DNA from: Branchiostoma floridae
Lineage: Eukaryota
Length of the DNA: 64,000 nt
NCBI RefSeq assembly: GCF_015852565.1
Contig: NC_136205.1
Span: 3,002,707-3,066,706, forward strand
Reading direction: 5' to 3'
A program made the translations under genes and the position numbers. Positions 41,799-61,628 of this stretch are shown here, piece by piece. The notes beneath the pieces were generated by a model that ran no database searches, had not been told where the DNA came from, and was given only the letters and a program-made list of their open reading frames with translations. The stretch's first letter is position 1, and each line of letters begins with the position of its first letter.

Positions 41799-41949
41799 GT
41801 AAGATTTGCATATCGAATTTGCATAAATGGGAATCGTTTTGTTGCATACATGATAATTTGACATTCTTTCCGTCGAAGGGTGTTGTCCCGAAAAACATTC
41901 CTGTATTCATTTGTCAAAGAATCAAAAGCACCGCGAATATTTTTCCATA

Positions 41950-42060
41950 ACAGTAAGAGACTACAGTGCATCGTGCTACCACGAAATTAAAACCACCGCG
42001 AAAAGTCCATTTTCCCGTTACCGCGAAATTAAATCCCCGCGAACTTAAATGCATTTACAG
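41950..42060. repeat. Dispersed repeat (...CCACCGCGAAAAGTCCATTTTCCCGTTACCGCGAAATTAAATCCCCGCGAACTTAAATGCATTTAC)
   Basis: A reverse-complement copy lies at 63840-63965 at the window end. Confidence 0.7.
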
Positions 42061-42340: not shown

Positions 42341-42342
42341 AG

Positions 42343-42456
42343 AAATAGACTACTGTCTGCAAAACCAGTGCCAGAACTCTGCCCGCTGTGTCAGTGGTAA
42401 CAGGAGCTACATGTGCCTGTGTTCCATTGAATACACCGGCGACTACTGCGAGCAAA
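42343..42456 (+). CDS. EGF-kringle membrane protein, exon 15: EGF (EIDYCLQNQCQNSARCVSGNRSYMCLCSIEYTGDYCEQ)
   Basis: Acceptor tattttgcAG and donor A|GTAAGT. Confidence 0.8.
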
Positions 42457-42894
42457 GTAAGTCTTAATAAATCTGTTTTATTATTTTTTTTGCAGAAAAA
42501 TGGCTATGACGTGTGGTTTCATGATTTTACATGCAATTACAGCTTTATGAGTGTACCCACATTAGTGCAAAAATGCAAAGTTATACGCCAAGATCCCCTT
42601 GTGATACGACTTTTTGATCTACTGTATGGGGACATTTTTCAGTTTTGAAGTTGCAGTATTCTCTCTATTGTGGCAGCTTTACAATACCTCAAACCAATTT
42701 TCAGATCGGAAAGGAAAAACATACGCCGCGAAATACACCTCGCTATTGTAAGCTTGGCTGTAGTTTTGATTCCGGATGTTTGGATTTAGTATCAGTGTGG
42801 ATGTTTTGTTGATAAATTCTTGAATAAGGTGCTTCATTAAGTTTCTAAAAGTAGGCTCAGGGTATGCTCTATGTTTCCTTTAACTGTACTGTAG

Positions 42895-43110
42895 TGGCGA
42901 TAGTGTGGAGTAATTGGTAGCGCATTCGAATCGGTGCAAAAGGTTCCGAGTTCGATACCCCCCATGCCCACACGTTGTGCTCTAGGGAAAGGCACTTTAC
43001 ACGACTTTCCCTGACGGTGGAGTGATGCCCACCGAGCCTCTACTCACTATGGATTTGGTGCGTCAAGGTGCCAACATCTGCTTGTTGGACTCCCTCCGAG
43101 AGCCGTTAAA
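42895..43110. mobile_element. tRNA-derived SINE copy (GGTTCCGAGTTCGATACCCC...GGCACTTTACACGACTTTCCCTGACGGTGGAGTGATG...)
   Basis: Same family as the copies at 3285 and 53690. Sits in an intron of the EGF-kringle gene. Confidence 0.65.
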
Positions 43111-43306
43111 TCTATTAATTTTTATTACTGTACTGTAGTATTTATCTCATCTCATGTTAAATTTAAGCTTATTATCGTGTATTGTTTTATCACATTTTGT
43201 TTCATATCGTTTACTTCCCTTTATTTCAAGATTTAGTTTAGTACAATTCTTCCGTTATTCTGTATTGTTTTATCACATTTTATTTTTTTTTCGTTTCATT
43301 TGAAGA

Positions 43307-43529
43307 TTTGGCGGACTTTGAAAAAATTCCAACCGCCAACATAATCGCAGCTGCCATCGCGTCCATAGTTGTGATCGCCGCGATCGCGCTGGGGGCGTAC
43401 CTGTACATCAAGTCGTACGAGGCACAGCGCGTCATCCCTCTAAAGAAGAAAGACACGCCGTTGGTTAACGCAGAGGAAGGGAAAGAGGCGAAAAAGAAGG
43501 GGTCACATCTTTCAGAAAGCACGGTGTGA
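43307..43529 (+). CDS. EGF-kringle membrane protein, terminal exon: juxtamembrane segment, TM helix (IIAAAIASIVVIAAIALGAYLYI) and a 45-aa basic cytoplasmic tail ending in a stop
   Basis: Acceptor tcatttgaAG. A 23-residue hydrophobic helix followed by KSYEAQR...KKKGSHLSESTV*. There is no kinase or other cytoplasmic domain. Confidence 0.8.
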
Positions 43530-45583
43530 GATGGATCATCGGGAGTGGAGATAGATAGATATAAATGTATTCAGGGCGGACATAAGTATAGTTTTTTTGG
43601 GGTGAAAACGAAAATGTACTATTAGGCTCGCCCCTGAGGCGTCGCCAAAAATACTCTGAAAAGAGTAGCGCAGAAAAAGTTACTTTAACTTTAAGGCAAA
43701 AGGGCAAACTAGAAATTAGCAACAACAGTTTGAAAATGTTGCACCTACAATATCACTGAACTAATACTGGTTATCACTCTTTGTTCTCTTTAATGTCTTA
43801 AGCTTTTTTTTCTTTTTTAAATCTACGTGTTTATATGTCATTAAGAGGGAGATGCCTAGTGCATACAAAGAAAACTCCACCCCAAAAAGAATAGTAAAAA
43901 AAGTATCAATTTCTAGACATTACAAAATCACGACGAAGGCATGCATTTTGTAAAACTTTGGCATCTGCCAGATCGTATATATAATCTAAGAAAACGAAGA
44001 AAAAAAGACGAAAAAAAAACAAAAGTATATACTATTAGATCCAGTAGACCTATTTCTTTATTTTTTTTCATCATTAGGCTCTTCCTGGACCATTGTGGTA
44101 AAACATATACGTAGCCAGTCTAAATTCCACAACATGTATTACAATTAGTAAAAATCACTAAGCCTGATTAAGTCAAGCTGACCACAATAGCTCTAGACAG
44201 GACAGATATTATTTGTCTTATTGACATGTCATCATGAATCTGACATTTGCTGGCAAGTGCTTTCAACACCCGGCGTTAGAAAAATACCTTCTTATTGTTA
44301 TTATTATTATAATTAGAATTTAAATTTAGATTTTATCCATAACATACTAGTGGTTATAACCATTATATGTTCTAGTGATGCATTGTGTTTCTGAAGTAGG
44401 AAAGAAAATTACTGAAGATAATTGATGTTGTCTCCTCAGCCAGTCCACATTTGAGATAAGATTATTTACTTGGTACGGAATATTCTAATATGGTGAAAAT
44501 GTAAGGAGCATGTATGTTTTCTTTGCAGTTATGCTGTTACTAATGAATACAAGTTACATAGACCTTTCTACCAGTATGCTAAATGTGTTTAAAAAGAGAA
44601 AAAGAAACGATGATAATAGCTTAATAAGGATGAACTATGTCGCAAAATACATTTGAATAGGTCTTAATATAGATGACATATTTAGTTAATTATATTTTCA
44701 TATATTTCTTTCTCATGATAGAGTAAGATGTCTTTCTATTAACTTTTCTCTAGGCAATAGAGACATACAAAATATTTAAAAAAAGTAACAGTTAGGAACG
44801 TCACTAGAAGTTAACATTTGAAATGCCTAATTTAAAGCTGAACAGCTGTAAATCTGTATCATGAATGTCCGTTTTTAAGCAATACTTGAACTTCTTGAAC
44901 TACATACGTGAAGTCTTAGAACAACACGTTTGATAACATCAATTAGCGTAATGACAAAGGATCTTCACTACTTTTATTACTCTAAATTTTGACCAATCAA
45001 GGACTACTCAAATCACACGTCATGTCTGCCTTTCTGTACTATTGGCTGTCGTGAAAATTACTTTATTTACTAATAGATAGAGCAACTTGCTTTCAGACTA
45101 TGATTTTCTCAATATTGAATATTTTTGAAAGATTTTTCCTTTCTTTCCTAAAGGTAATTCCAACTTACAGATATTTTTTGCACAAAGTTATGTTAGCAAC
45201 GATTTGCAAAAAACTAACACCGTTATTGTCTTTCAAAGTGCAATTCATAGAAAAAACAATAGCAACACCATATTGCATTTTGTCTTCTACAATCGCTATG
45301 ACACATTCATTCACTATACGCCTGGTATTTAGCCACGGTCATGTATCTTTCTTTACTGTAGTTTTTCTTGCTACGCTGTTGTAAGAGCAATTCTATGTTC
45401 ACATCTACAGCCTTCATTCTTGTATTCAAGTCTCGTTGATGAAATAAACATCTAACCTTTTTGATGCGTTGTCCTGACTGTTTGACTGAGCAGTTATGAA
45501 TATTAGTGAAGGATGTTCTGTTTCCGGAATTCCAGTGAAAATCAAGTATGTCCGAGAATAATGTTGTTCTCTCTTTAGTTGTC

Positions 45584-46422
45584 TCACATATATACCAGTT
45601 GGCGTGGAAAGATGGTCACAGTACGGAGCTGTACGTTCGCCACCACCAACTGTCCGTCCGGCCCCATGGCAACACCAGCTGGGTTGGTAATGTTCGCGAG
45701 GGTGCGGACAAAATCCCCACGGCTTGTATACATGTCAACCGCCTCTGGTTGCAATTTCGTCACAATGATGCGACCCAAAGTGTCCAAGCAAATACCTCGT
45801 GGAATACCCGACCGTCCTTCTAGTCCAAGTGTCCTGAATGTGACTAGCCTTGCCCCGTAGCGGTTGTAGACCTGGATTTTATTCGCGGTCGATACCAAGA
45901 TGTTTCCCTCGCTGTCTGTGGTTACATATGACACGGGGAACTTTCGTCTCTCCTCAAATTTCAGATGAAGCGAGCCGTTCGACTGGTAGATCAGAACTCC
46001 ACGCATGCTGGTCACGATGACTTTGTGGTCAGTCACGCCAACTGCAATGCCAGGATTCACGGACACGAAGTTGACGTCAAACGTGAACAGAGGCTGCCCA
46101 TTGCGTCTGTACTGCACCACATGTGCTTTAACATTAATATTCTTCCTCTTCCCCACTACCCACAAATGCCCCTCTCCGTCCACGGCGACATCGCTTGGTT
46201 GCATTTTCTTCACCGCGACCCCAGGGACGATTGTTCGGAAGAAGCGGCGATAGGCTCCGCTTATGTTGTAGACATGGACCCTTCTCTTCTGGAAATCAGT
46301 CACGAAGATCTCGTTGTCAGCAGAGACAGCCACTCCACGGTGACTTCGAATTTGGTTTAGTGAGCCTCCTCCCGTCCCAACCGGGACAACCATCAGTGTT
46401 CGGTCATTAATGTCATGGGAAC
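45584..46422 (-). CDS. NPxY/NHL gene copy A, NHL-repeat beta-propeller exon (six NHL repeats, ...FVTDFQKRRVHVYN...GHLWVVGKR...VIVTSM...GNILVST...RIIVT...GQLVVAN...). Terminal exon.
   Basis: Acceptor tttcactgcAG at 46424-23 (phase 1). 269+ aa are open to the stop. NHL signatures match the TRIM-NHL/teneurin-type propeller. Confidence 0.8.
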
Positions 46423-47995
46423 CTGCAGTGAAAGGAAGAGGATGCGATCAATGATAACCTGGCCCTGGTACGAACGTTCGAACAAAGCCTGTTACAGTTA
46501 GCAAAACTAAGAAAATTTTTTCATTCGGGCAACCAGCACGACCGGATGATGATGAAAGAAATCTTAGTAATTCCCAGGAAAGAAATAATGGCTTTTTTAT
46601 GTAAACTATGCAAGTTAGGTCCGCATTTGCATATCCTGTGTCTGTTTATGTTTATGTTTATCTGCCAGAACTTACACATGTTGCATGTATAAAAGTCCTT
46701 TAGTGGGGAAAATAATAGATGGGATAATTTCCTAAATGATTATCCAAATTTATTTTTGTGTACCTCTCCCTAAGCTACTTACGTGCCAAATATTATGGAA
46801 ATTTGTTCAATTATCTCTGCATTTGCATATACTGTGTTAAACCTGCCAGAAATTACACGTTACATGTATCTAAGTCCTTCACTATGGAAAATAATAGATG
46901 AGAGGATGTCCTGATTAATCATTCAAATTTATTTGTCAGCATCTCTTCATCAGCTACCTGGGTTCCTTTGTCACCTTTTGTTCAAGTATCTCCTTGGAAA
47001 GAATAAAAACGCCCCAGCGGTTCCAGAGCAAGCTCCAGAGGTGCCCGAACCTACACTTCTTATTATATATTGACAAAAACTATCTTCCACTAAAAATCAA
47101 GACCAAAGCATGTCCAAGACAAAAGATTACCATGTGACGTGCTTGAGATTGACGACAGCGTTGGCGTTGTTATCCCAAAGGGACCACTGGCAGTCGTGAC
47201 CTAGTAAGAGAATACGAATGGTCTAATAAACGTGTGATCTAGTCAGTGTGTTTGTTTGTTTGTTTGTCTTTCTGTGCGTTCGAAGTTTTGCCGATATTCT
47301 AGCAGCATGAAAGGGGGCATGGAAGAGTTGCAGCATGGAAGGGGGAAGTGGTGTAATAGGATACTTGCAGAATTGAAAATATGGATAGGCTGCAAAACCA
47401 TGTAGCACATTACATTGTTTTGTTTGTTAAGAGACCAGATTCTGGTCTTCAGTAGCTTCAGATAGATCGTTTCCGTTAAGGGTATGAAAAAGTGATCTGT
47501 AGAAATATGAAATACGTGATCTATAACCAATAGGAAGCGTGACAAGCATTCTCTCCCACCGTTAAGTCCTCAGGGGCCTCTGACGTCATTGTCGTCCTGC
47601 CAGAAGGACAACAGATGGGGCGATCCGGGGTATGGATCGGTCTTGATTTCTGCTGTCGATGGGAGACATTGTCATAAAGTCATTGAGTCACACACTAAAG
47701 TGGTCATCTCATGAGACTGCGCCAAATTGCGCGAGGAAATTACGTAAAATGTAAAAAAAAAATCCTTTGTGGTTATACGAACGTGCGACGCAATTTCGTA
47801 TGAAGCCCATATAAGAAGATTATTGAAAAGATATTATTAAATGTATAAACTGCCCTGTTTCACGCCGCTTGCGCCTATTTTGCGAACATTTAGCAAAGGA
47901 AACTATCAGATGAAAGAGTTGGAAGAATACCAGCTGCAGGCTAGAAGTAAGAAGAGAAAGCCAAAAACAGACGGTACACGAGATCGAGAGGGTAC

Positions 47996-48120
47996 CATTG
48001 GAGCATTCGGCGTGCTGTTGTTGATGAATGCAAACTTTAAACTTCCACCGATGACCAATGACAACAGGGTAACAGCTGTACATGCGAAGACAGCAACGTA
48101 CTCCCACCGCAATTTCAAAA
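47996..48120 (-). CDS. NPxY/NHL gene copy A, candidate TM exon (VLKLRWEYVAVFACTAVTLLSLVIGGSLKFAFINNSTPNAPM)
   Basis: Acceptor cctttacAG and donor ATG|GTACCC. Phase 1-in, but phase 0-out, which does not match the NHL exon (needs 1). Usage is uncertain and possibly isoform-specific. Confidence 0.45.
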
Positions 48121-48516
48121 CTGTAAAGGCATATTTTAGGACACCGTAATACCGTCCAAAGGAAAAAATCATGATAATAGAAGTAGCATTCTTAGTGTTA
48201 GTAAACACTAAGAAAAAGGCCGCATATATGAACATTTTCTGTAAAACAGATTACGTTCTAGCTTAATGAGCAGAAAACCAACCATTGAAACTTGAAAATG
48301 ATGTTTTGAAGTGATGTTTTACTTGTAGAATTCTGTCAGTTTGTTTGATCAAACCAAAGGCACCGTGCGAGAATAGGATAAGATATGTTACATGTTACAT
48401 AGGATGCTACATTTACGTCAGGTGGAAACAAAAGTGAGTCCATTCATTTGAAAAATAAGATCGCTACCCATTACTTGAAGCCTAAGCCATGACAAGGTCA
48501 CAAAAGACAATCTTAC

Positions 48517-49732
48517 CACCAACGTTCTGTTGGGGACCGTTTTTCACGTGCATTGGTGCCTGATTTGCCTGAACGGTGCCATGTGTGATGGAGCTGCATC
48601 TTTCTGACCTGGTGGAGGTATCGTCATCCCCACCTGTGTATGCGACTGCGTAAGGTTCAATGTGGACATCGTCAGGGCTGACATCTTGCGTTCGTTCGTT
48701 CTTGGTCACGTTTCTTCTAGCTTCCATGTCTTCATCGTTCTCATACCTAACCGCATATGGTTCGATGTCGGCATTGCCAGGGATACTGCTTTGTATTTGT
48801 CCTCTCCCTATCGCATTATTACGTCTGGTAACGATGCCATCATTGTCATCATCTGTCTGGTATCTAACAGCATACGGAATGATGTTAAAACTCTCACCAG
48901 TGTCTGTTTGCCAGGAGGCAGATTTACCCGCTTCGGTGTCCCGACTTGCTTGTGGCTCAATGTCTGTATCCGCTTTGGGGTTCAGATCTTCCGCCGTTGT
49001 TTCGACAGTTCCTGATGATGTTGCAGTTCCTGATGTTATGAGGGTTGTATCCGACTCTGATGCAGGTAATGAAGGGTCAGGGGCGTACATGGGATTATGG
49101 TCGCATGATTTTGGCTGGTACCCCGAGGTGCAGTTTAGTGCGTTTTGCCCGTACATCGGATTGGGGGTTTCAGTGTCTGCGACATTTTGCGCGTACATCT
49201 GATTCCGGGCTTGGTCATTCTGGACGCATGCCGTAAGTGGATAGAGTACATTAGAGCGATGTAGAGTATTAACCGTGTTTCCGTCATTTCTAACAAGATC
49301 GATCTTAGCATCATTCTTAGTTGCATCGCATCCTTCAATGTTTGTTAAGGTGTTATCGGTGTTGTTCTGTTCAACGTAAGATTCCGTTGTTTCACTCTCT
49401 TCTGAAACTGTCTTGAAACACACCATGTGATCCTGACAAATGTAAGTAACTTTATGTGGTACAATATGGGCATCACCATGGTTACAATCGACAGTCGGGG
49501 CGATTTCATCAATAGCATCACCCTCTGTGGGGCTGCTCTCACCATCAATGTAGTCGTCGTCGCCATCTTTTTTACATCTGAGATCATATGGCCTGGTGAA
49601 GAGATCGCCATCATTGTCAGCCTGGCTGTAAGCAAGGTCAGTAGTTGTAGAATTCAGACCTGCTGGAGTCGTCTCGTCTTGCTGTAAATCTCCCGTGTTG
49701 TCACCCACTGAGACGTTGTCATCCTGTTGCAT
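48517..49732 (-). CDS. NPxY/NHL gene copy A, exon 1: acidic S/T/D-rich N-terminal region. It has 3x N(P/Q)MY motifs and 3x (I/E)PYAV(R/A)Y repeats.
   Basis: ATG at 49732 (ttatgcaacagG context). The 416-aa ORF is open to the donor G|GTAAGA at 48516-15 (phase 1). No signal peptide. Confidence 0.7.
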
Positions 49733-50339
49733 AAAGTCAACGATGTTGTAAAAAATGCCTTAACGCGCTACTCCCTTACAGAAAGCAAGTCACAAGCGAT
49801 CACAAATGAACCTTTATATGGATTAACGAATTTCAATGCCTTCTTGGTAATAATGTTCTGATGGGTATAAAGAACATTACTATCTATTTCTGATTTCGAA
49901 ATTGTAGGGATTCTTTTGGTTAGATTCCTGCCATACATATTTGCGACAATAATGGTCATTCTAAAGTTTCACAAAACCCTTTAAAATTCCTTCAACAATA
50001 AATGCTATTATATTTTGAAATTCTAATTCGTTCTTACAGCTTTTCTATTCCGTAACATCGCCATAGCCTATAGAATGTGGCCTTTTTGCAAATTTGCGCT
50101 ATTCCTCTCAGACATATACAGTATACGCATATTACATTGTCTATGAAAAATGTTAACATTCTTTTCAGCCAAACATTACAAGATCTATCAGCATAAAACT
50201 TAGTCACAATGAAAACAGTCAGACAATTAGGATTCTCTTTAGATCTTTCATGCAACCAATTAAAGAAAAAAAAAATTAACTATTTTTTCTCTTCCAGTAC
50301 AATCATTCCTCGTCCAATTTTTTCACGAAAAAATCAATT

Positions 50340-50420
50340 CCCGAAAAGAAATTTTACATGAATATATATATATATATGGGTTTAAGCATTTCCACGGGCA
50401 GGATTTTGCCAAGCAAAATA

Positions 50421-50470
<50 letters not shown>
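50340..50470. repeat. (TA)n microsatellite (~100 bp) followed by (ATTT)n
   Basis: tatatatata... run. Confidence 0.95.
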
Positions 50471-50476
<6 letters not shown>

Positions 50477-50994
50477 TTATTTATGACTGAATTCTAGAAA
50501 CACACGGCGCATTGGTCAGTACAGACAATTTCAGTAATCACAGGCGTTTGGCCTACGTGTGGTCTTAGATTGCCTCCGTTTTAATTCGTTTCTTTTCTTT
50601 TATTTGTTATTCTTATATGAATAATTTAAAGAGAGACATATTAGTCTGACCATTCTAATTCTTAACAATCTGTATAATATCTGAAAAAAAAATAACCATA
50701 GACAATCTGATATAATGAAATTATACTGTAATATGTCTGTGCAGAATTGCGCACACTAACAACTAGGTCACACGTTGCCTGCTATGGTGATGCTTCTGAA
50801 TACAATAGGTGTTAGAACCTGGGATGAATGATTCTGCTTGCATATAATGTCATCCTGTATTATATGGACTCATAAAAGTCAAGGGTAACAGTGGTAGATA
50901 CATATAAGGGATTATAAAGCTATTGTACACGGCTAGACCTAACAAAGTTTCTCCAAACTAGTTTGAACAAGAGTTCGGAGACCTCACACCTCCA

Positions 50995-51335
50995 TGAAAT
51001 ATTCTGATTATGCAAATAACTTTCACATTTGCATAATTCATGCTTGCTTATGTACACCTTTCACTAATTTACACAGGTCACAGTGTTGACAGCCCAATCA
51101 TTTACTACACGTACTAAGAAGAATTAGGATACCTTCAGTTAGGATAATTAATTATGCAAATTAGTGACTTATTTGCATAATTAGTATCTGCTTAACTTCG
51201 GCCTGCCACGAACTACATATGTAACATGTATTTGAGTCCTATATTGGAAAACACTGTAAATATAGATTTTCCTCATTAAGTATGCAAATTAAGTTCAAAT
51301 TTGCATAATTGCACTTCATTATGTACATCTCTGCC
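50995..51335. repeat. Three tandem ~110-130 bp repeats. Each carries an inverted pair of octamer motifs (TATGCAAAT[T/A]A...ATTTGCATAATT).
   Basis: Units at about 51010-51060, 51148-51190 and 51272-51320. ATGCAAAT is the canonical POU/Oct-binding octamer. Located in the unique spacer between the divergent paralogs. Confidence 0.6.
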
Positions 51336-51689
51336 ACAGGTACCTGCATACCAAATAGCATGGAAATCCATTATTCCTATGTTCCATTATGCTCCTTGGA
51401 AGATTTCAACAAAAATGCTCCTGCAGTTCCAGAGCAAGCCGCTAGGGGGCTCAAACATACACCACTTCTTCCTTACATCAAAAGCTATCTGCCACCAAGA
51501 AATCAAGACCATAGCATGTCCGGTTAAAAAGATACAAAAAATGGAAGTTCTGCTGCAGTACCAAGGTCACACACCAGGAGGCCCAAAATTGACCTTGACC
51601 TTCGTCTTCCCCACCCCTACCCACATACAAAATATCATCGTAGTCCATCAAGAGGTTCTCAAGTTATGATGTCCACAAATATCTGGAAA

Positions 51690-51755
51690 CAAAAACACAC
51701 AGTGTCACACACAGACACACAGACAGGCACACAGACAGACACACTCAAAACTATA
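51690..51755. repeat. (CACAGA/CA)n microsatellite
   Basis: cacacagacacacagacaggcacacagacagacacac. Confidence 0.9.
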
Positions 51756-52889
51756 CCTCCATTTTTTCATGGAGGTAACTATTATGTACTGAATTGAAAA
51801 TTTTTATGTTGGTACTTTCTCAGCTAAAAGGCGTCACTTAAAACCATCTCTTTGCTTATTCACGCATGACTTCAGGTATTCTACCTGATATTTTTGATAT
51901 TAGTTATTACTTTGGCTGAATAAAAACACACAGCCGGGGTATCCTTCTAGCCGAATTCTACTAAGGACTAACTGAGCAGCATGTACAAATTGAAAATAGT
52001 ATTCATCATTTACACAACCTTCCTTTAAATGTTCAGTACACGTTTCGACGGCCATCTTTCGCCTTCATCAGTACAAGATTTGGTACTGAAAGAGCTATGT
52101 TTGGGGTACCCGAAACGAGGAACAACACGACGTGAAGTTCCTCAAAACACGTCATTCCACACGAAACGTGCCATTTCTCAAACGCCGCTATCTTTGCACG
52201 GGTGCGGAGTTACTGTCGCGTGACGGTAACTGCACGCGTGTAAAGATAGCGTCGCTTGAAGAATAGCACGTTTCGTGCCGATTGACGAGTTTTGAGCAAC
52301 TTCACGCAAACTCCGAACGCGTGCATTACCTCGCCCCGTGCTGACTTCGCACGCTTGCTATTCCTCATATCACGGTCCCCCTATATACCTGGAAAAAGGC
52401 GACAGATGGTCGTCGAAATGTTTACTGAAGATGTAAAGACAGGTTGTGTAAAGGAAGAGGACTTTGTTCAATTGATCTACCAACCTGATGAAACTAAATT
52501 TTTATTTACGGAAGCATATACAGATGGTTACAATGCACATGTAAAGGTGTACACACGTCACAATGCTTAGATTTTATAACCTAGTTGAAGGAACTAATGT
52601 AAGATGGTAGGAAATAGTGTTGGATTTAGCAAAGATGTCAGAATGAAAAGAGTAAAACAAATCAGACGTTTGTACTCACAGTGGACGAAATTGGTGCATG
52701 CTCAGGCTCCATGTTGAGTTTTGATCGGCTTCAGTTCCTCACATCATTGCTCAAGTAGTCATGTAAGATGAACAAAGAAAATGTTGGTAAAAATAAAACT
52801 AAGTAGAGCTGGACTAGCCGCACATGGCAATATCCATTGACGATGAATAGGTCATCCGACAGGATGAAAAGAATAGAGAAGAAGAATAG

Positions 52890-53130
52890 TACGCCAAAAA
52901 GCAGTTACTCAAGCAACTGGATTTGTTTGAAACAATATCCGTTGTTTTTCGCCAGTGACACTGGAGGAAAAACCCTCTTTAACAAGATTTCTCCAGTGTC
53001 GCTGAAGAAAAACAACGGATGTTGTTTAAAACGTCTGACCGTTTCGAAAATCATATCCAGTTGCCCGAGCAACTGCTTTTTGGCGTATCTTATTACCTGG
53101 ATGTCTAACCTTCATCGACATTAGAAGACT
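52890..53130. mobile_element. Complete MITE of a family with TIR AATGTCGATGAAGGTTAGACATCCAGGTAATAAGATACGCCAAAAAGCAGTTGCTCGGGCAACTGGATATG
   Basis: Terminal inverted repeats at 52895-52960 and 53045-53125. Partial copies of the family occur at ~7300-7400, 8150-8260, 29375-29470, 32200-32320, 36330-36410 and 37230-37350. Confidence 0.7.
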
Positions 53131-53689
53131 AGTCCTAAATAGAATGTGATGCCACAATGTCCATTCCTGCAAAAACATACTTAGCATCACTTGCACACGC
53201 ACCTACTTCCATGGCGCTCGACCAGGGTTGTAGCCAGCCTGAAATCATTTTCAGTCCCCTTGATTTTTAATGGGAATCCTATCGAGCACCGAAGGCATGG
53301 CGTGACGTTGCGCGTCATTTCTAGGGGGTCTGGGTCCCAGAAAATTTTTAAATCAAGACCCTCTGAAACACTATTTCCTGCATTTTGAGGTGCAAATTTT
53401 GCTTGTAGGCTAAGCTGTTCAATGTCATCTGTTTTGGTGAGGAAGAACACATGGGTTTCTTTTTTTTAATATCTTTACTTATCAATTTTTGTCTGTCCCT
53501 GGGGACTGAATGGGGAAATTTGTTTTCAGTCCCCAGCTGCAAAATTCCTTCAAAGGACTGAAGGACAGATGCTGGCTACAACCCTGCTCTCGACTAAGCG
53601 AACGATTAGACACCAGCCTTCCAATTCTTTCAGTATCCTTTACACCACTTACGACTTACTGAACACATTTTCGTTTTGCAACACACACA

Positions 53690-53835
53690 CAACGGTAGAG
53701 CGTTCGGCTCGGAACCTAGAGGTTCTGAGTTCGATTCCCGCCGTGCCACGCCCCGACGTTGTGCCCTTGGGAAAGGCACTTTACACGACATTCCTCACTT
53801 CACCCAGGTGTATAAATGGGTACTTTCTGTCTGTA
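53690..53835. mobile_element. tRNA-derived SINE copy (GGTTCTGAGTTCGATTCCCGCCGTGCC...GGCACTTTACACGACATTCCTCACTTCACCCAGGTGTATAAATGGGTAC)
   Basis: Same family. Located in the spacer of the palindromic duplication. Confidence 0.65.
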
Positions 53836-56631
53836 CCGTGTATGTGGCACTGTTAATATAAGTTACCAAAACTTGAATGCAGTGCCACATCGTCCCAGTC
53901 TGTACAAAAAGCAAAATACAAAAAAAAAAACAAAAAAAAACAAGACAAAGAGACAGACGTACCAACTGAGAATACATCCGATAACAACCGTAACCGTCGC
54001 TCCAGGAATGTGATGTAAGACCCAGACCCTTCTGAAACTGACGCAGACGTATTTTGTACTGATTCAAATCCTATCAAGGAGAATCCTATTAAAACAATGG
54101 GACGTACCATTTTTTCAAGGGGGTGTTGCACAGAACTTTTTACATTGCGTATTCATTAATGACATTTGCATAAGTAAACAATAACAATAAATGAGGGAAG
54201 ACGCCCACATGGATTATGCGAAGTTTTCCTCTTTTGAATCAGCTTACCAAAATACTGTATATATATGTGGTATAAAACAACCAATCAAGAAACAACACAG
54301 ATATATGGTCAGGTCTTACATAAGTCAGCCAGCAACACCCCCTTGAAAAAATGGTACATCTCATGTTTTCAATTGGACTCCCTCGATACGACTTTACCCA
54401 GAACAGAAATACGTCTGCGTCAGTTTCAGAAGGCGTCTCGGTCCAACATCACACCATCCCTGGAGCAACCGTTGATACCTCCGTGAATTTGGATGTATTT
54501 TAGTCAGTTGGTGTGTCTGTCTCTTTATATTTTGCATCCACAGTTGTGTGTATGTTGCAAAACGGAAGAAGTATAAGTCAGAAGTGGTGAAAAAGGATAC
54601 TTAGAGAATTGGATGTATTGCACGGCTGATTTACAATCGTCCTCTTAGTTGAAAGCCATGGAAGAGCGTGCGTAAAAGTGAAACATGTCTATGCTGGATC
54701 ATGGAATGGATATGGAAGCATCACAGTTTATTTGATATTCTTCTTCTTTCTTCCTTTTATCCTGTCGGATCTTATCCTCCATAGAAGGCTCCCTGTGGCC
54801 TTTTTTTTGTTGCTCATAATACACTTTTGCTGACCATTTCGTTTTGTACTGGGTCGCTGATTGCCGGTCGTAGCTGAAATCCGGCAATCAGCTTCCCAGT
54901 ACAAAAAGAAATGGCCAGCAAAATTGTATTATGAGCCAAAAAAGGCCCCAGAGAGCCTTCTATGGAGGCTAGTTGGATCTGTTCATCATCAATGGACATT
55001 GCCATGTGCGGCTAGTCTGGCTCTACTTATTTTCTATTATTTTACCAACATTTTCTTTGTTTGCCCTAAATGAATACTGGAGCAATATATAACATTGATG
55101 TAGTCAGTAAGGATGTGAGGGACCAAAATCAAGATGGATCCTAAGGATGCACCATTTCCGTCCACTGTGAGTACAAACCGTGTTTTGACTCTTTTCATTC
55201 TGACATCTTTGCTAGAGCCATCACTATTTCCTTATCATCTGATTATCAAGTATTCTGCCTTTACATGTGTCTTGTAATTATTTGAATATTGTATGCTATT
55301 CAGTCACTAGGGCTAGCTCTTTGTAGCATGATTCGCACGGAATAATCCTGACTGTATTGGCATTTTGTTTATTTAGCTAAACTAATAAATCAAATAACAA
55401 ATAGTTGAACGCATGAAGTCATATGCAAATTATGCAAATGCATTTTAAGTAACGCCCAGTGCTCTATACAATTTACCAAAGAAAAAGTTTGGATCATTTT
55501 TTTTTCAATCAGATGAGAAAGTACTAAGCTCATACAATTTCAATTTCAGTTCACGGCATACGGCATAATAGTTCAAACAAGTCTTGAGAAATTTTGTTCA
55601 GGACAGGATGGCCCGAATAATTGGTCAGGATGGCCCGAAATTAGGCCATTATTTTGTTGGGAAAAATCCTATCTGTGGAAATGCTTAAACGCACTAAAAT
55701 TCTAAAAAGAATCGAATTACGAGCGTATCATTTATACAGCGTTCTAACACCTATCGTATTTTGAAGCAACACCATAGCAGGCAACATGTGACCTAGTTGT
55801 AAGTGTGCGCAGTTCTGCACAGACATATTACATCATGTTAGATTGTCTATGAGTATTTTTTTAGAAAAAAAAACATATTAAAAGATCAATCGTTACATAG
55901 ATTGGTCAAAATTAGAATAGTCAGACTAATATGGCTGTCTTTGAATTATTCATACAAGAACAATAAATAAAAAAATAAATTAATAAGGAGGCAATCTAGG
56001 ACCATAAATAGGCCAAATGCCTTTGATTACGGAAATTGTCTGTACGGACCAATGCCCCATGTGTTTCTAGAATTCATTCATATATATTCTAAAATGTAAT
56101 TCCGTTTTGTGGAATTGTTTTTTCTTCTTCTGAAAATTGGAAAAGGAATTATTGTAATGGAAAAGAACTAAATAATCTAATCTGGGTTTCTTTTACTTTG
56201 TTGTATGAATAATTAAAAAAGAATCATTTTTGTCTGGCTGTTTTAATTTTGACTAATTTGTATACAGATTGACAATGTAATCTTTTTGTCTAAATATTCA
56301 TAGACAATGTAATATGATAATACTGTAATTTGTCTATCCAGAATTGCGTAAAGTTGAGAATATGCCACATTTCATCGGCTATGGTGATTTTATGGAATAG
56401 AATAGCTGTTAGAACGAATTAGAAAATATAAATATAGAATACAACACGGTGTATTCCGTATCACCCGAGGTACCAGCCAGACCGCGGGTCGGATCGCACG
56501 ACGGCCGAGAAAACCACTGTTTTGATGCGAAATGCGCCAGAAGTTGAACAAATTTGTTGCCCTCGAAAAAAAAGCGTTGCAAGAGTAATGTTCCAACGTC
56601 CGAATCAGGTATTCGAACTGTCGATGGTATG

Positions 56632-57642
56632 TCACTATGATTCGTCCATTACTTGAATATGCTGACATTGTTTGGTGTGGCCTTCTCGGCAAAGATTGTG
56701 ATCTTCTTGAGTCTGTCCAGATGGCCGCGGCACGAGTTTGTACCGGAGCCATGAGAGGCACTAAACATGAGAGCTTGTTAGCCGAGGTTGCATGGGACAC
56801 ACTAGCGGACAGAAGGAAAAAGCACCAGTTGATTCAGTTTTGGAAAATTATGAATGGTCTCGCACCACTGTACTTACATAATATTATCCCTCCACGTATC
56901 TGTGATACGGTCCCTTACAACCTTCGCGCAAACCAAAACCTTACTTCCATTGCCTGTAAAACTGAAAAGTATAAAAGATCCTTCCTACCTTCAACTGTTC
57001 ACTTGTGGAATGAACTGCCTACGAATGCTAAAGCCGTCCTTTCGATCAACACTTTCAAAAAAGAGCTGGACTCACTATTCAACAAGCCGACAAAATACTC
57101 CCATTTCTCTTATGGCCAAGGTCGTTCCGCAGTTCATCTTACAAGGCTCCGTCTAAACTTCAGTCAGTTAAACTACCATCTATTTCAACACCATTGTATT
57201 GATTATCCTACATGTAAATGCGGCTATCATTGTGAAACAACCGAACATTATCTACTACACTGCACACTCTATACTAGCCAAAGAAGTTCTTTGTTATCGG
57301 CTGTCTCAAATATTATAGTAGACCTAAAGCACCTCAACGACACTACTTTATGTACTTTACTGTTATCAGGATCAACATCTCTCTCACATCAACAGAACTG
57401 TAACATTTTTGATCTTGTCATTACCTATATCCATTGTACAGGCAGGTTCTCCTAATTGATTCAGCACCAACTTGTCTTGTTTAAATTTATTTTTCTGTTA
57501 TCCATTTTGTACTTATGTATGTAATGTCGTTTACTATTCTTGTTTTATGCGTATGTTTCTTGAGTAGAAGGCTTAATATAAGCAATTTGTGCTTTCCGCC
57601 TCATACTCGCAAAATATATGTGAATAAAATAAAATAAATAAA
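56632..57642 (+). mobile_element. 5'-truncated non-LTR retrotransposon (LINE). It keeps the ORF2 C-terminal tail with a CCHC motif and an (AAATAA)n 3' end, flanked by ~18 bp target-site duplications.
   Basis: ORF 56637-57455 translates to the conserved LINE ORF2 tail (LLEYADIVWCG...ESVQMAAARVCTGAMRGT...LADRRKKHQLIQFWKIMNG...CKCGYHCETTEHYLLHC). The TSDs are AACTGTCGATGGTATGTC at 56613-56630 and AACTGTCGATGGTACGTC at 57643-57660. Confidence 0.8.
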
Positions 57643-58313
57643 CTGTCGATGGTACGTCCACTCGAAACAGTTCGATTTATTCGAATGGAGCCCGTGTGAT
57701 AAGCCCGGGCCGTACGGAAAGTTATCACCCGGTCCGGAACACCCGTATCGAACGTTTTTGCGTCACAGGTATGACATAATAGTATTTATTGCTGAAAAAA
57801 GTCGAACAATATCTCCCACCCTATTTAGTTAATGGTTGTCTTAAGAACTATTGTTCTCGCAAACAGTTTGTTAGGCCTAAGCTTATAAGAAAAAAGGGTG
57901 ACATTACCGACCATGCCAGTAAAACCTGCCAACCCTAACCTTTTGGAGGGATAAAACACTGTAAAAGGACATAAAAAAACTTCCGTCACCTTATTTCTGC
58001 TGCAATAGACAAGTGTGTTTGAATTGATGTATGTCTAAAATGTGATGTTGATAATGGCAGTGCTCTCGTGCATTCCAGTTTTACATTATCAAAATTTCTC
58101 ATAGGATCACTTGGACAGAAATCTAAACAAAGCCCTACAATTTCAAAAACAGAAATACATAGTTATGCCCTTTATACCTGTCACAACATTTTCGCTAAGA
58201 AGGCATCAACATCTGTTGATTCATATAAAGGATGTTCATTTGTGACGATAATTGACATCGTAAGAGTTTTGCTTTCTGTAAGGAAGTAGCGTGTAAATTA
58301 TTTTACAACATCG

Positions 58314-59565
58314 TTGACGTTATACAACCAGGATGACCACATCTCACTAGAGGAAAACACAGGCGATCTACAGCAAGACGAGACGACTCCAGCAGGTCTG
58401 AATTCTGGAAATACTGAACCTGCTTCCAGCCAGGCTGACAATGATGGCGATCTCTTCACCAGGCCATATGATCTCAGATGTACCGAAGATGGCAAAGACG
58501 ACTACATTGATGATGAGAGCAGTCCCACAGAAGGTGATGCTGCGGATGAAATCGCACCGACTGTCGATTGTAACCATGGTGATGCCCATATTGTGCCATA
58601 CAAAGTTACTGACACGTGCCAGGATCACATGGTGTGCTTGAAGACAGTTTCAGAAGAGAGTGAAATAACGGAATCTTGCGTTGAACATAACAACACTGAT
58701 AACACCTTCACAAACATGGATGAATGTGACCCAACTAAGAGTGATGCTAAGATCGATACTGTCGTAAATAACGGAACCACGGTTAATACTCCACACTGCT
58801 CTAATGTACTCTATCCACTAACGACATGCGTCACGAATGTCCAAGCCCGGAATCAGATGTACACGCAAAATGCCGCAAACTCTGAAAACCCCAATCCGAT
58901 GTACGCGCAAAACGCCATAAACTGTGCCTCGGTGTACAAGCCAAAAGCCTGCGACCCTAATCCGATGTACGCCCCTGACCTTCCATTACATGCAACAGAG
59001 TCGGATACAACCCTCATAACATCAGGAACTGCAACATCATCAGGAACTGTCGAAACAACCGCGGAAGATCTTAACCCCAAAGCGGATACAGACATTGAGG
59101 CACAAGCAAGTCGGGATACCGAAGCTGGTAAATCTGCCTCCTGGCAAACAGACACTGGTGAGTGTTTCAACATCACGCCGTATGCTGTTAGATACCAGAC
59201 AGATGATGACAATGATGGCATCGTTACCAGAAGTAATAATGAGACAAGTAGAGGACAAACACAAAGCAGTATCCCTGGCAATGTCGACATCGAACCATAT
59301 GCGGTTAGGTATGAGAACGATGAAGACCTTGCAGCTAGAAGAAACGCAGCCAAGAACGAACGAACGCAAGATGTCAGCCCTGACGATGTCCACATTGAAC
59401 CGTACGCAGTCGCATACACGGGCGGGGATGACGATACCTCCACCAGGTCAGAAAGATGCAGCTCCACCACACATGGCACCGTTCTGGGGGGCAACAGTGA
59501 TGCGCGTGGCGTTAGAGATCAGGCACCGATGCATGTGCAAAACGGCCCCCAACAAAACTTTGGAG
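58314..59565 (+). CDS. NPxY/NHL gene copy B, exon 1 (acidic N-terminal region with NPMY x2, NQMY and PYAV(R/A)Y x3). The initiator ATG seen in copy A is mutated here (ATG to ATA plus a 1-nt indel).
   Basis: The ORF is open over 58314-59565 to donor G|GTAAGA, but it has no in-frame ATG until residue ~100. It is about 87% identical to copy A. Confidence 0.55.
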
Positions 59566-59812
59566 GTAAGATTGTCTATTGTGGCCATGTGCATATAACG
59601 GCTTAGACTTTGCGTAATGGACATCTATCTTACTTGCTCTAATGAAAGTGTCAACTTTTGTCAAAACCTGATGTGAATATAACAAAGCAAAAAATTTAAT
59701 ATCTGAGGCCTTTTGCTTTACTAGCACTGTAATCTTTAATACTACTTCTTTATCATTTTGATTTTTTTTTCCTTTGGATGTTATTATGGTGTCCTAAAAT
59801 ATGCTTTTACAG

Positions 59813-59937
59813 GGTTGCAAGTTCGATGGAAGTACGTCGCTGTCCTCATATGCACAGCTGCTGCCCTGTTGTCATTGGTCATTGGAGGAAGTTTAAGTTT
59901 CGCATTCATCAACAACAACACGCCGAATTCTCCTATG
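59813..59937 (+). CDS. NPxY/NHL gene copy B, candidate TM exon (LQVRWKYVAVLICTAAALLSLVIGGSLSFAFINNNTPNSPM)
   Basis: Acceptor gcttttacAG and donor ATG|GTACGC. Same phase problem as copy A. Confidence 0.45.
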
Positions 59938-61628
59938 GTACGCTTTCGTATACCGTTTTTTTTTTTGCTTTGTCTTCTTATCTTTAGCCTGGTATTCTTC
60001 CTCTTCTGGCGCACCTTCTTTCCGCTGATAGTTTCCTTTGTTAAATTTTCTTAAGAAGCGACGAGCGTTATCTCACTGGACTGCGCCAGATTGCACAAAG
60101 CTTTCACAAAAATTGTGCAAACCGACCCAAATTGGCACTGATCCGTGTAATGTGTAGTCTGAAATCGTGATTTTGTTAGACATTGCATTTACAAAATAGG
60201 CGCAAAGCAGCGCGAAACAGTGTAGTTTATACATTTAATGATATATAGATCTGCAAGTTCCAATAACCTGCTTATACGGGCTTCATATGCAATTGCGTCG
60301 CACATCAGCGAAACCACAAGAGAAAATTGGCATGTCGACCTCGCGCATGTTGGCATAGTCTTGTGAGATAACCACTTTAGTAATGACTTAAGTATGTGCC
60401 ATAGTCTTGTGAGATAACCACTTTAGTATGTGGCTCATCAAATTCATGACAATGTCTTCCATCGAGAGCAGAAATCAAGACCAATCCATACCTCGGATCG
60501 TCCCATCTGTTGTACTTCTGGCCATGGGTGGACGACAAAACCTGAGCTGACGTCAATAGCCCCTGAGGACTTTAAGGTAAGAAGAATGCTTAACAAGCTT
60601 CTTTACTTTTCAGCCATACTTCCAGTTTCCGATAGGTAGATGAAAGCACATATTTCATACTGTAAGCGTTTTGTCATGTGAAGTTAAGCAAACAAAATAA
60701 TGTAAGGTGCTACGCACTCATACAAAGATGTTGCAGCCATCAAGACATTGAATTGTCAGAAAGCTGTTTCAAATTCCTTGGAACTTCTGCATCACTTAAT
60801 CTTTTATTTGTTTTAGCAAACCGATAAGATGTCGAAGGATTATGACATTACCTTCTGATTTATCTATCTTATTTACTTATAATATTTGTTACATAAAAAA
60901 ACTTAACTCAAAGTGGTACCAAAGTCTACATACTGCAACATTGGACAAGAGTCTAACCATATTTTCAATTCTCTAAGTATCTGTTTACATCACTTCATGC
61001 TGTCACTTGGGAATATCAGCACGACTTCGAACGCACAGAAACTGATTAGAATATCATTGTTTTCACGCGTTAATGAGTTCATTCGTATTCTCTAACTAGA
61101 GCACGACTGCCAGTGATCCTTTTGGGGCAACAACGCCAACACTCTCGCCAATCTCAAGTACATCACACGGTAATAGTTTGTCTTGGACATGCTATGGTTT
61201 TGAATTTTGGTCAAGATAGCCTTTCATGGTTAGAAAAAGGAGAATAGACTTGTGCACCTTCTGAGTTTGCTCTGTAACCGAATATGATTCAAATTTAAAG
61301 GAGATGATATTCAGCATGCAGGCAGCTAATATAAGGAAAAGATGAACACAATAAAATACAAATCACGTAGATTAGGACTTAGTTGGATAATTGAATAGGA
61401 AATTAACTACCCCTCTTGTTTTTCCTAAAAAAAGACTTTAATATATTTAACGTATGTAATTTCTGAGAGGTTTAACAGTAGGCAGACACACGATATGCAA
61501 CTGCGGACTTAACTTGTATAATTCCTACAAAAATGACCTACTTTTAAAATTTTCTTTACGCAATTGTGACAGGCCTTTTTGTACCAGACCAAGTTATCAT
61601 TGATCGAATCCTCTTCCTTTTACTGTAG

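Follow-up and report, generated by a model that had tools for sequence, protein, structure and literature searches.

Inverted octamer pairs between two divergent NHL-repeat genes of the lancelet Branchiostoma floridae, a probable passenger of a HINE-like transposon

Three pairs of inverted octamers lie between two divergent NHL-repeat genes of the lancelet Branchiostoma floridae, in the 64-kb stretch of genomic DNA that we have analyzed here (the window). We consider it very likely that this array is part of a mobile element with dispersed copies and, with appreciably less confidence, we favor its assignment to the HINEs, i.e., DINE-1-like non-autonomous Helentrons. The array is thus probably a transposon passenger and not an enhancer purpose-built for the neighboring genes. 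The units that carry the octamer pairs would correspond to the central tandem repeats of a Helentron-type rolling-circle transposon, non-autonomous and 838 bp long, whose insertion (minus strand, 51778–50941) lies just within the left edge of the core of a large genomic palindrome. The six Oct-type sites found at the locus would then be a by-product of this insertion and not an evolved bidirectional enhancer.

By exact-match scan, ATGCAAAT was found on the plus strand at 51010, 51154, and 51282, and ATTTGCAT at 51027, 51171, and 51299, forming three perfect ATGCAAAT-N9-ATTTGCAT palindromes (51010–51034, 51154–51178, and 51282–51306). All six octamers match the ATGCAAAT consensus at 8/8 positions and the gap within each inverted pair is 9 nt, so the three units with six paired sites described in the initial annotation are confirmed; the distance of 20–25 nt given there has to be shortened to 18 nt from start to start for the motifs and 17 nt for the octamers. 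The excess over background is also real: there are three ATGCAAAT-N(0–30)-ATTTGCAT pairs in the 64-kb window and a mean of 0.00 in 100 shuffles. In all cases the palindrome extends beyond the octamers. The first (ATTATGCAAAT-aactttcac-ATTTGCATAAT, 51007–51037) has arms that match at 11/11 nt and a fold of -8.2 kcal/mol (z = -4.7), the second (TAATTATGCAAATTAGT-g-ACTTATTTGCATAATTA, 51149–51183) is a near-perfect palindrome of 35 nt with 17-nt arms at 94% (-10.1 kcal/mol, z = -7.1), and the third (AAGTATGCAAATT-aagttca-AATTTGCATAATT, 51278–51310) has 13-nt arms at 92% (-8.3 kcal/mol, z = -3.6). The arms common to the units are TATGCAAAT and ATTTGCATAATT, and the octamers are flanked by AATT/TAAT-like homeodomain half-sites.

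Each palindrome is contained in one of three degenerate units of ~130–144 nt (51000–51370, minus strand) whose starts are spaced by 144 and 128 nt. Identity between units is 75% and 66% over a 44-nt core and only 38–50% (pairwise) outside the palindrome. The contrast is sharper by column, with 21/21 invariant within the palindrome and 26/127 elsewhere in the unit (Fisher P = 8e-13). We read this invariance as constraint in the source copy of the transposon, which would have preserved the palindromes unchanged as the remainder of the units drifted. The word tandem, used for the array in the initial annotation, is generous for such spacing and identity, and Tandem Repeats Finder (TRF) did not call the array at 51000–51370. 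Perfect palindromes in diverged units could equally stem from host selection at the locus.

The divergent paralogs are part of an inverted duplication with arms of roughly 9 kb, the whole palindrome spanning 22 kb and the arms diverging from each other by roughly 10%. The left arm (41929–50832, minus strand) carries one NHL-repeat gene (exon 1 at 48482–49732, exon 2 at 45584–46393), and the right arm (55727–63981, plus strand) carries its paralog (exon 1 at 58314–59606, exon 2 at 61718–62479) plus a later non-LTR retrotransposon fragment. The closest protein to the right-arm gene is a B. floridae v1 model with 83–92% identity. The octamer array had been placed inside the unique core of this palindrome, and it is indeed within the 4.9-kb core (50833–55726), but at its left edge and not at its center.

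The proposed element (50941–51778, minus strand, about 838 bp) shows its modules in the order published for HINEs. Along the minus strand there are a subterminal inverted repeat (subTIR), a nested short inverted repeat, a microsatellite, a body, the central repeats, the inverted subTIR, a short palindrome and a terminus ending in T. The 5′ subTIR ACCTCCATGAAA (51765–51776) is located 1–2 nt inside a T-rich 5′ terminus and is conserved in eight aligned copies. It pairs with the short inverted repeat TGGAGGTA (51754–51762), conserved as well among the aligned left modules, in a 9-bp stem with a 6-nt loop (5–6 nt across copies; -7.4 kcal/mol, z = -4.3). HINEs have this same arrangement, with the 5′ subTIR 2–4 nt from the terminus and, 3–22 nt downstream, a short inverted repeat whose 5′ half is nested within that subTIR. 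The segment after the hairpin (51695–51744) is a (GTCT/GTGT)n microsatellite (element strand; TRF period 12, 4.2 copies), the type of repeat expected in the left module of a HINE. This GT/GTCT-rich run is of variable length, present in most of the eight aligned left modules and short in two of them. A left flank made of subTIR, hairpin and microsatellite is characteristic of HINE anatomy (PMC7492417, PMC4067079), and in the oyster Cg_HINE the microsatellite is of the GTCY/GTCK type (PMC7492417). Next are a conserved body of 320 nt (51371–51694), found by alignment and nhmmer to match sequences of Branchiostoma lanceolatum (locus L005) and B. floridae (L001), and the three degenerate octamer units, in the place of the satellite-like central tandem repeats that are optional in HINEs.

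On the other side of the array, the 3′ subTIR TTTCATGGAGGT (element strand, 50988–50999) is 47 nt from the 3′ terminus, and the palindrome CAAACTAGTTTG (50954–50965) is found 22 nt past this subTIR, at a distance of 13 nt from the terminus, in common with a probable second copy in the core. The pair ACCTCCATGAAA/TTTCATGGAGGT, within the 12–15 nt of HINE subTIRs, is complementary at 12/12 positions; its members bracket the array at a distance of 765 nt and are the only exact copies of the 12-mer in the 64 kb. The 5′ end was set by the alignment of eight copies, in which similarity starts 1–5 nt ahead of the subTIR in a T-rich context, and the 3′ end (50941) is the point at which the two window copies cease aligning, after ...GAGAAAYTTTGTT. 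The resulting ends are T(T)ACCTCCATG... (T(T)ACCTCC...) and ...TTTGTT, the element strand beginning with T or TT in 8/8 copies and ending in ...TTTGTT in two. HINEs insert within TT, with strings of T at the boundaries and without target-site duplication. If the terminus is 50941, as set by two copies only, the 3′ distances of 47 nt (subTIR) and 13 nt (palindrome) are within the published ranges of 38–60 nt for the subTIR and 8–35 nt from the end for a palindrome of 5–10 bp (PMC4067079). No Pfam domain was detected in the ORFs of the element and the core. Rfam gave nothing there at gathering thresholds and, at relaxed E-values, only chance matches to miRNA models (E about 4), leaving a hammerhead retrozyme, a miRNA or an snRNA or histone promoter context without support.

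Similar sequences are found at other places, as expected for dispersed, multi-copy elements like HINEs. The left (5′) module was found eight times in about 210 kb of DNA from at least two lancelet species (two copies in the window, three elsewhere in B. floridae and three in B. lanceolatum). The body aligns with B. lanceolatum L005 (1138–739) at 81.9% identity across 403 nt, and its half near the 5′ module (51547–51694) is part of a segment that matches B. floridae L001 at 79%. The full-body copy of L005 contains neither the central repeats nor the right flank. What the other copies have in common is the microsatellite end, whereas on the opposite side they stop at differing points; measured from the hairpin/microsatellite end, the lengths are ~840 nt (window), 465 nt (L005), 235 nt (L001), and 60–100 nt (L005 and L008). 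A shared end with variable truncation is also a classic signature of 5′-truncated retroposons.

Read on the plus strand, the same sequence would be a SINE-like retroposon dependent on a LINE, with the hairpin and microsatellite (51695–51778) as the 3′ end recognized by the reverse transcriptase and the octamer units as 5′ tandem monomers acting as an internal promoter, as in the mouse L1 5′ UTR. The variable cuts (~840, 465, 235, and 60–100 nt) opposite a constant hairpin/microsatellite end fit this, and so do the presence of octamer units in the longest copy only and the fact that octamers do occur as motifs of real promoters and enhancers. Nevertheless, we find this origin unlikely. The microsatellite does not occupy the extreme end but lies inward of the terminal hairpin, there is no A-tail, and neither the element nor the core has a tRNA, 5S or 7SL-like match that could be its head. 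By inspection there was no convincing target-site duplication around the copies of the window, L001 or L005. In addition, the 12-nt inverted match, the palindrome and the shared ...TTTGTT terminus would have no role in a retroposon, and an intron copy described below retains the units without the supposed 3′ end. Rolling-circle elements with variable 3′ ends explain the truncation equally well.

Copies of the octamer units outside the array are found in the first intron of both paralogs. In the left gene, an older partial copy (46566–47127, minus strand) contains two units and the adjoining part of the body, with octamers that have decayed to ATGCAAGT...ATTTGCAT; the segment 51151–51533 matches it at 46792–47127 with E = 5e-20. 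The right paralog has the mirror-image copy (61182–61561, plus strand), in this case with ATACAAGT...AGTTGCAT. Since the copy is present in both arms, its insertion predates the gene duplication. Of the 16 octamer positions, 1 and 3 are mismatched in the two intron copies, and the hairpin of the left copy folds no better than shuffles. The difference between the arms, 2/16, is close to the ~10% by which the arms diverge overall, indicating that there is no host-level constraint on the intron octamers. At an unrelated locus of B. floridae (L008) we found a related palindrome, AATTATGCAGAT-N9-ATTTGCATAATT, with a degenerate neighbor 224 nt away in which 7/9 loop bases are as in unit 2. This was the one occurrence of the octamer unit in some 145 kb of lancelet sequence from outside the window and it had no adjoining left module, so that the membership of the units in the element is deduced from two sites in the window, the array and the intron copy. 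The L008 palindromes form an island that adjoins a fragment of a pogo/Tc5-type HTH gene; with the island being only a 1.1-kb piece between assembly gaps, a link to pogo subterminal repeats would be no more than conjectural.

The initial annotation had offered a shared bidirectional POU/Oct enhancer and a satellite-like repeat as alternatives. The unit recurrence, the L008 palindrome and the eight copies of the 5′ module bring the second, in the form of a transposon-borne repeat, close to the truth. Recurrence at hundreds of unrelated sites had been named as the result that would speak for a repeat family; the unit does recur, in the first intron of each gene copy and as the related L008 palindrome, a dispersal that goes part of the way. 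A dedicated enhancer found no support. Judging from the sequence, a functional POU/Oct enhancer or bidirectional promoter of the NHL-repeat paralogs, whether evolved in place or co-opted from a transposon, looks improbable, although several features would suit it: six exact consensus octamers in 300 bp with a fixed inverted geometry, palindromes perfectly conserved amid diverged surroundings, a position 1.3–1.6 kb upstream of the start codon of the left gene, and two exact octamers that are kept at 55423–55439 in the degenerate mirror copy. However, the unit is not specific to the locus, and the octamers of the intron copies have decayed at about the neutral rate. The regions upstream of three related NHL-family genes (L001, L003, and L008) do not contain paired octamers, and neither do loci L001–L008 as a whole (ATGCAAAT-N(0–30)-ATTTGCAT). 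From the start codon of the right gene the array is separated by about 7 kb and one retrotransposon insertion, and the promoter-proximal 1.1 kb that was duplicated with the genes falls within the arms, outside the array. We know of no cooperative POU dimer site with inverted octamers spaced by 9 nt, PORE and MORE being different. Rfam detected no snRNA or histone gene near the array. Incidental binding of POU proteins may still take place at exact octamer sites.

A probable second, degenerate copy of the element was identified in the core in mirror orientation (54474–55598, plus strand). It has a 5′ subTIR, ACCTCCGTGAAT (54477–54488), a short GTCT run, the two direct octamers mentioned above and a palindrome-like patch. 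Its TTCACGG (55550–55556) complements its own variant subTIR (CCGTGAA), and the terminus is ...GAGAAATTTTGTT (55586–55598). The resemblance to the first element consists of short collinear patches found post hoc (pairwise E = 0.009, 0.18, and 5e-4), with a global alignment score of 420 compared to 381 ± 13 in shuffles, and both ends are intact in one copy only. The direct mirror relation between 50833–51060 and 55726–55380 gave no excess over shuffles except for the right-flank patch. Two mirror copies at the center of the palindrome may have seeded the inverted duplication of the NHL genes, via fold-back or template switching at hairpin-forming repeats. We give little credence to the combined scenario of a lancelet Helentron family that keeps palindromic double-octamer arrays in its active copies and also seeded this duplication; if true, such a family would spread ready-made paired Oct/POU-binding modules, or hairpins recognized by Rep, genome-wide.

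The array could also be an unclassified local minisatellite, or a segmental copy, next to which the transposon modules lie by chance; a small duplication within the locus would then account for the likeness of the core and intron arrays. Both sites at which units join the body are in the same window, 4.4 kb apart, the B. lanceolatum copy of the body has no units, and for a 12-nt inverted pair in 940 bp the chance expectation is a few percent. Against such a coincidence, one arm of the 12-mer pair falls exactly on the end that is conserved among the copies of a multi-copy element. Five separate modules also agree with the published HINE layout in both order and spacing, the second core copy repeats the module order, and an array of related palindromes is present at an unrelated locus of B. 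floridae. We regard a chance juxtaposition as rather implausible.

More distant sequences added little. The ENA contig L004, reached via a reverse-transcriptase homolog, is from another organism and has no repeats in common with the window, and the one palindrome match in a viral collection was unrelated. Twenty JGI metagenome contigs contained the exact palindrome, none of them homologous to the unit or the element; some were bacterial operator-like sites (L012) and 4–6 of the 20 resembled animal DNA with paired-octamer arrays. No HINE-like ends were found in the animal-like contigs. Such contigs give a slight indication that the design may also occur outside lancelets.

If the array is the passenger of a HINE-type transposon, mobilization in trans would be carried out by a Helentron Rep/helicase-endonuclease that recognizes the subTIR and hairpin ends. 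In the literature that we searched, neither Helentrons nor HINEs had been reported from lancelets, and no autonomous Helentron with these ends was identified, which counts against the assignment. As the ends and palindromes are intact, the insertion would be fairly recent. The most likely role of the palindromes would be that of a cis-module of the transposon, either binding a dimeric protein or forming hairpins, and their perfect conservation in otherwise decayed repeats is a handle on what, if anything, the central repeats of HINEs do. The significance is modest and for specialists, the feature itself being ordinary. Still, the case guards against over-reading, since a textbook motif cluster between divergent genes can be the cargo of a mobile element, and it is a possible example of a transposon that spreads Oct-type sites. 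If the classification holds, a DINE-1/HINE-like family is added to lancelet genomes, of which about 6.7% is annotated as MITEs (PMC10013865). [quoted passage not shown]

Among known systems the closest are the HINEs themselves, i.e., Drosophila DINE-1, the mite HINE-Mo, the oyster Cg_HINE and the bivalve pearl/CvA/DTC84 elements. Like the lancelet element they have subTIRs of 12–15 nt, the 5′ one with a nested short inverted repeat, as well as a microsatellite and optional central repeats. Their right flank, too, is ~60 nt long and includes a short palindrome besides the 3′ subTIR, and they share the T-rich ends, the lack of coding capacity and a high copy number. The lancelet element differs in that the microsatellite immediately adjoins the 5′ hairpin, ahead of the 320-nt body, and in that its repeats are strongly diverged save for the perfect 30–35-nt double-octamer palindrome, a feature that we have not found described for HINE repeats.

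Canonical Helitrons, defined by 5′-TC...CTRR-3′ ends, insertion between A and T and a hairpin of 16–20 nt that lies ~11 nt before the 3′ end, were discarded; the ends here are T(T)ACCTCC... and ...TTTGTT and there is no CTRR after the octamer hairpins. In CACTA (En/Spm) and hAT transposons, the subterminal repeats consist of many motifs of ~12 nt, often in inverted pairs within a few hundred bp, which active copies retain intact since they are binding sites for the transposase. These motifs adjoin true terminal inverted repeats, whereas the octamer motifs are central and the ends of the element Helentron-like; at the element we saw neither CACTA or hAT termini nor target-site duplications. The monomers of the mouse L1 5′ UTR are, as in the array, short tandem units in variable number at one end of an element, with transcription-factor sites. 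Mouse L1 is autonomous and poly(A)-tailed and has target-site duplications, none of which is seen in the lancelet element, and the inverted ends of the latter argue for a DNA element.

Finally, the octamer consensus and the inverted pairing are shared with the POU/Oct modules of immunoglobulin and H2B promoters, of the snRNA distal element and of PORE (ATTTGAAATGCAAAT) and MORE (ATGCATATGCAT). Compared to PORE and MORE, the inverted octamers are here 9 nt apart and, unlike the sites of POU/Oct modules, they are not conserved at the paralogous promoters and appear to ride on a dispersed transposon.

The array of paired octamers (POU/Oct-type motifs; three units at 51000-51370) located between the two divergent NHL-repeat genes is not a chance occurrence. 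Its region contains six exact octamers, ATGCAAAT starting at 51010, 51154 and 51282 and the complement ATTTGCAT starting at 51027, 51171 and 51299, arranged as three inverted pairs with a gap of exactly 9 nt in 3/3. The three inverted pairs claimed in the initial annotation are thus borne out, the pattern being found three times in the window against 0.00 in 100 shuffles and in none of the loci L001-L008 used for comparison; the distance of 20-25 nt claimed between motifs has to be corrected, as the motif starts are 17-18 nt apart. The motif scan with background comparison gave 21 octamers in the window for 5.3 ± 2.4 expected, while the density in other lancelet loci was as expected. The palindrome arms measure 11/11 nt in unit 1, 17 nt (94%; a near-perfect 35-nt palindrome) in unit 2 and 13 nt (92%) in unit 3, with single-strand folding energies of -8.2, -10.1 and -8.3 kcal/mol, respectively, that 0 shuffles equaled. 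As for the description as tandem repeats, the three units are spaced 144 and 128 nt from start to start and share a 44-nt core (75% and 66% identity), but as a repeat the array is weak: without the palindrome, pairwise identity between units drops to 38-50%, and the array was not reported by TRF. Invariant columns amount to 21/21 in the palindrome vs. 26/127 elsewhere in the units (P = 8e-13).

The sequence next to the array is found elsewhere in lancelets. The segment 51374-51772 matches an intron sequence of B. lanceolatum (L005, 1138-739) with 81.9% identity over 403 nt, 51547-51776 matches a B. floridae locus (L001, 17578-17372) with 79% identity, and profile searches gave more partial copies. 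All of them have one end in common (consensus T(T)ACCTCCATGAAAAATGGAGGTATAGTTTTTGG), behind which lies a GT/GTCT microsatellite; this end appears eight times (two in the window, three in B. floridae and three in B. lanceolatum), copy numbers being drawn from ~210 kb of lancelet DNA. On the minus strand, from 51778 downwards to 50941, the element proposed here begins with TT, the 12-mer ACCTCCATGAAA, six A residues and TGGAGGTA, which is complementary to the first part of the 12-mer and pairs with it as a 9-bp stem (z = -4.3). Then come a (GTCT/GTGT)n microsatellite (51744-51695), a conserved body of 320 nt, the three octamer units, TTTCATGGAGGT (the 12-mer's exact inverted complement), the palindrome CAAACTAGTTTG 22 nt beyond it, and finally GAGAAACTTTGTT. 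The 12-mer and this inverted complement are its only exact copies in the 64 kb, and the 3' subTIR and the palindrome are located 47 and 13 nt, respectively, from the 3' end. That five modules show both the expected order and the expected spacing makes it unlikely that a local minisatellite adjoins transposon modules by chance. The copies are cut at different points and all keep the microsatellite end, as would be expected of a retroposon on the opposite strand with the octamer units as 5' promoter monomers. However, we consider this unlikely, because it leaves unaccounted for the two inverted 12-mers, the palindrome and terminus of the right flank, and the internal position of the microsatellite, no clear target-site duplications were seen at the copies inspected, and the intron copy lacks the supposed 3' end.

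In this lancelet window, the paralogs encode a two-exon protein; its N-terminal half is of low complexity and contains IEPYAVRY repeats, and an NHL-repeat propeller forms the C-terminal part. The ORFs of the left gene span 45584-46393 and 48482-49732 on the minus strand; those of the right gene, in mirror image, span 61718-62479 and 58314-59606 on the plus strand. All the significant homologs belong to Branchiostoma, the closest being a 693-aa gene model from B. floridae v1 (83% and 92% identity to the two right-arm exons). In exon 1 (48482-49732, 58314-59606) ~30 acidic or polar residues separate the (D/N)IEPYAVRY motifs, which are kept in distant Branchiostoma paralogs (P0050-P0052) despite the divergence of the remaining N-terminal sequence. 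The arms of the inverted duplication (~41929-50832 and 55727-63981) consist mostly of aligned blocks 84-94% identical, and their homology ends sharply at 50832 and 55727, placing the array at the left edge of the 4.9-kb core, 1.3-1.6 kb from the start codon of the left gene and ~7 kb from that of the right one. No Rfam family or tRNA was found in the region around the array, and no protein domain in the core ORFs.

A relaxed search revealed a fourth octamer pair, ATGCAAGT-N9-ATTTGCAT, at 46608, mirrored at 61495 by a pair with three mismatches, the ~130 nt around both aligning as homologs of the array units; a profile search added a half-unit at 46809-46877. By BLAST the homology extends beyond the units, 51151-51533 matching 46792-47127 (E = 5e-20) and 61523-61185 (E = 1e-13). 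Intron 1 of both paralogs holds this composite of units and ~160 nt of adjoining element sequence, indicating that the intron insertion is older than the duplication. Here the octamers have decayed (1 and 3 mismatches per 16 positions) and differ between the two copies at 2/16, which comes close to the arm divergence of ~10%, and the hairpins fold no better than shuffles. A third independent site, B. floridae L008 (chromosome CM022901.1), reads AATTATGCAGAT-N9-ATTTGCATAATT and has a degenerate palindrome 224 nt from the pair, whose loop cagagactt matches that of unit 2 (tagtgactt) at 7/9 positions. This island (18238-19348) is a 1.1-kb piece flanked by assembly gaps, 450-650 nt upstream of a fragment of a gene with an HTH domain of the pogo/Tc5 type (HTH_Tnp_Tc5), and its palindromes may be part of a pogo-like transposon at that site. 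Dispersal elsewhere in the genome, which the initial annotation took as a sign of a transposon, is therefore found on a limited scale: the unit in two introns and at L008, the adjoining element end eight times. The shared bidirectional enhancer that it put forward is unsupported. A genuine POU-dependent enhancer keeps a small probability because the six sites are perfect consensus octamers, but it would be unlikely considering that the unit is dispersed and without constraint in the intron copies, that paired octamers are absent upstream of three related NHL-family genes (L001, L003, L008), and that the array lies outside the duplicated promoter-proximal sequence. The other alternative, a satellite-like repeat, comes close: the array is probably an ordinary transposon-borne repeat.

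The core appears to contain a second, degenerate copy of the element, more tentatively identified. On the plus strand from 54474 we found degenerate versions of the modules in unchanged order: the left module ACCTCCGTGAAT-ttggatgta-...-GTGTGTCTGTCTC, two exact octamers (55423-55439), TTCACGG (55550-55556; complement of CCGTGAA, the subTIR variant of this copy), then a palindrome-like patch, and GAGAAATTTTGTT, which ends at 55598. The collinear patches have pairwise E values of 0.009, 0.18 and 5e-4, and the global score was 420 vs. 381 ± 13 in shuffles. The alignment of the two copies stops exactly after ...TTTGTT, which provides an independent estimate of the 3' terminus. They are mirror images, each with its right flank ~110-130 bp from the inner arm end; symmetric about the duplication centre, they are far more diverged than the arms (~90% identity). 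In addition, GAGAAATCTTGTT (52981-52993, minus strand) differs at one position from the shared 3' terminus and is preceded on the element strand by a 7-bp-stem palindrome, AAACAAC-atcc-GTTGTTT; this may be a right flank belonging to a third, fragmentary copy.

The simplest explanation of the contrast in conservation would be a young insertion together with preservation of the palindromes at the level of the source. The insertion would be fairly young because its subTIRs, palindromes and nested hairpin have remained intact. The source element would maintain the palindromes, with free drift in the remainder of each monomer, and in a copy left to the host the octamers would decay at the background rate, as in the old intron copies. 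No compensatory changes were found in the imperfect copies (ATGCAAGT with ATTTGCAT; ATGCAGAT with ATTTGCAT), so that the preserved property looks like the sequence, a putative dimeric binding site, and not pairing alone. The candidate binder may be either a POU factor of the host or a protein of the transposon.

Other repeats were detected in the window. A perfect 26-nt inverted repeat, GTACCATTTTTTCAAGGGGGTGTTGC (54105-54130 and 54333-54358), encloses ~200 nt with an octamer at 54164 and ATTATGCGAAG; it is MITE-like, and its ends (ACCCCCTTGAAAAAATGGTAC) resemble the left-module design of subTIR, A-run and complement. The inverted repeat at 39892-40029 / 40140-40277 (138-nt arms, 96% identity, 110 nt apart) also has a MITE-like look, and the core contains a fold-back or inverted-repeat structure at 51988-52306 / 52131-52473 (72% identity, ~340 nt). 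A 39-nt core sequence, CTTTTTGGCGTATCTTATTACCTGGATGTCTAACCTTCA (53076-53114), matches three sites at 100% and a fourth at 97% identity in B. belcheri L006 (6901-6939, 8981-9019, 10974-11012, 13389-13427), each located downstream of a tandem NHL-only gene, at ~125-170 nt; identity between the coding exons is only ~73%. The sequence could represent either a short ultra-conserved element or one end of a different repeat family. The right arm carries an inserted, 5'-truncated non-LTR retrotransposon (56627-57642), which shares 99.7% identity across 1017 nt with a full-length copy in an ENA metagenome contig (ERZ27265261, L002 2690-3706). The family is young and probably active, and the match means that the metagenome assembly also contains DNA from this lancelet species. 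AT-rich, animal-like metagenome contigs contain inverted octamer-pair arrays with gaps of 8-16 nt and periods of ~100-190 nt (L015 429-628; L023 1078-1210, reverse complement L027 3945-4075; L024 468-686; L009 106-908), which lack homology to the lancelet unit; L027 codes for the C-terminal portion of a non-LTR reverse transcriptase. Other metagenome palindrome matches, e.g., L012, are bacterial operator-like sites.

Judging from its modules, the array is rather probably the block of central repeats in a non-autonomous rolling-circle transposon of HINE/DINE-1-like type, the octamer units being joined to the element at two sites, both within the window. The curious feature is that the paired octamer palindromes are still perfect within otherwise diverged central repeats. 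No autonomous Helentron of lancelets was reported in the literature searched. In published elements of this kind (PMC4067079, PMC7492417), subTIRs of 12-15 nt lie 2-4 nt away from the 5' end, and the 5' subTIR has a short inverted repeat nested within it. A microsatellite (of the GTCY/GTCK type in oysters) is present, satellite-like central repeats occur optionally, and T strings are seen at the boundaries. The right flank measures ~60 nt, its 3' subTIR and a 5-10-bp palindrome being located 38-60 and 8-35 nt, respectively, from the 3' end. The order and spacing of the modules in the window element agree with this layout.
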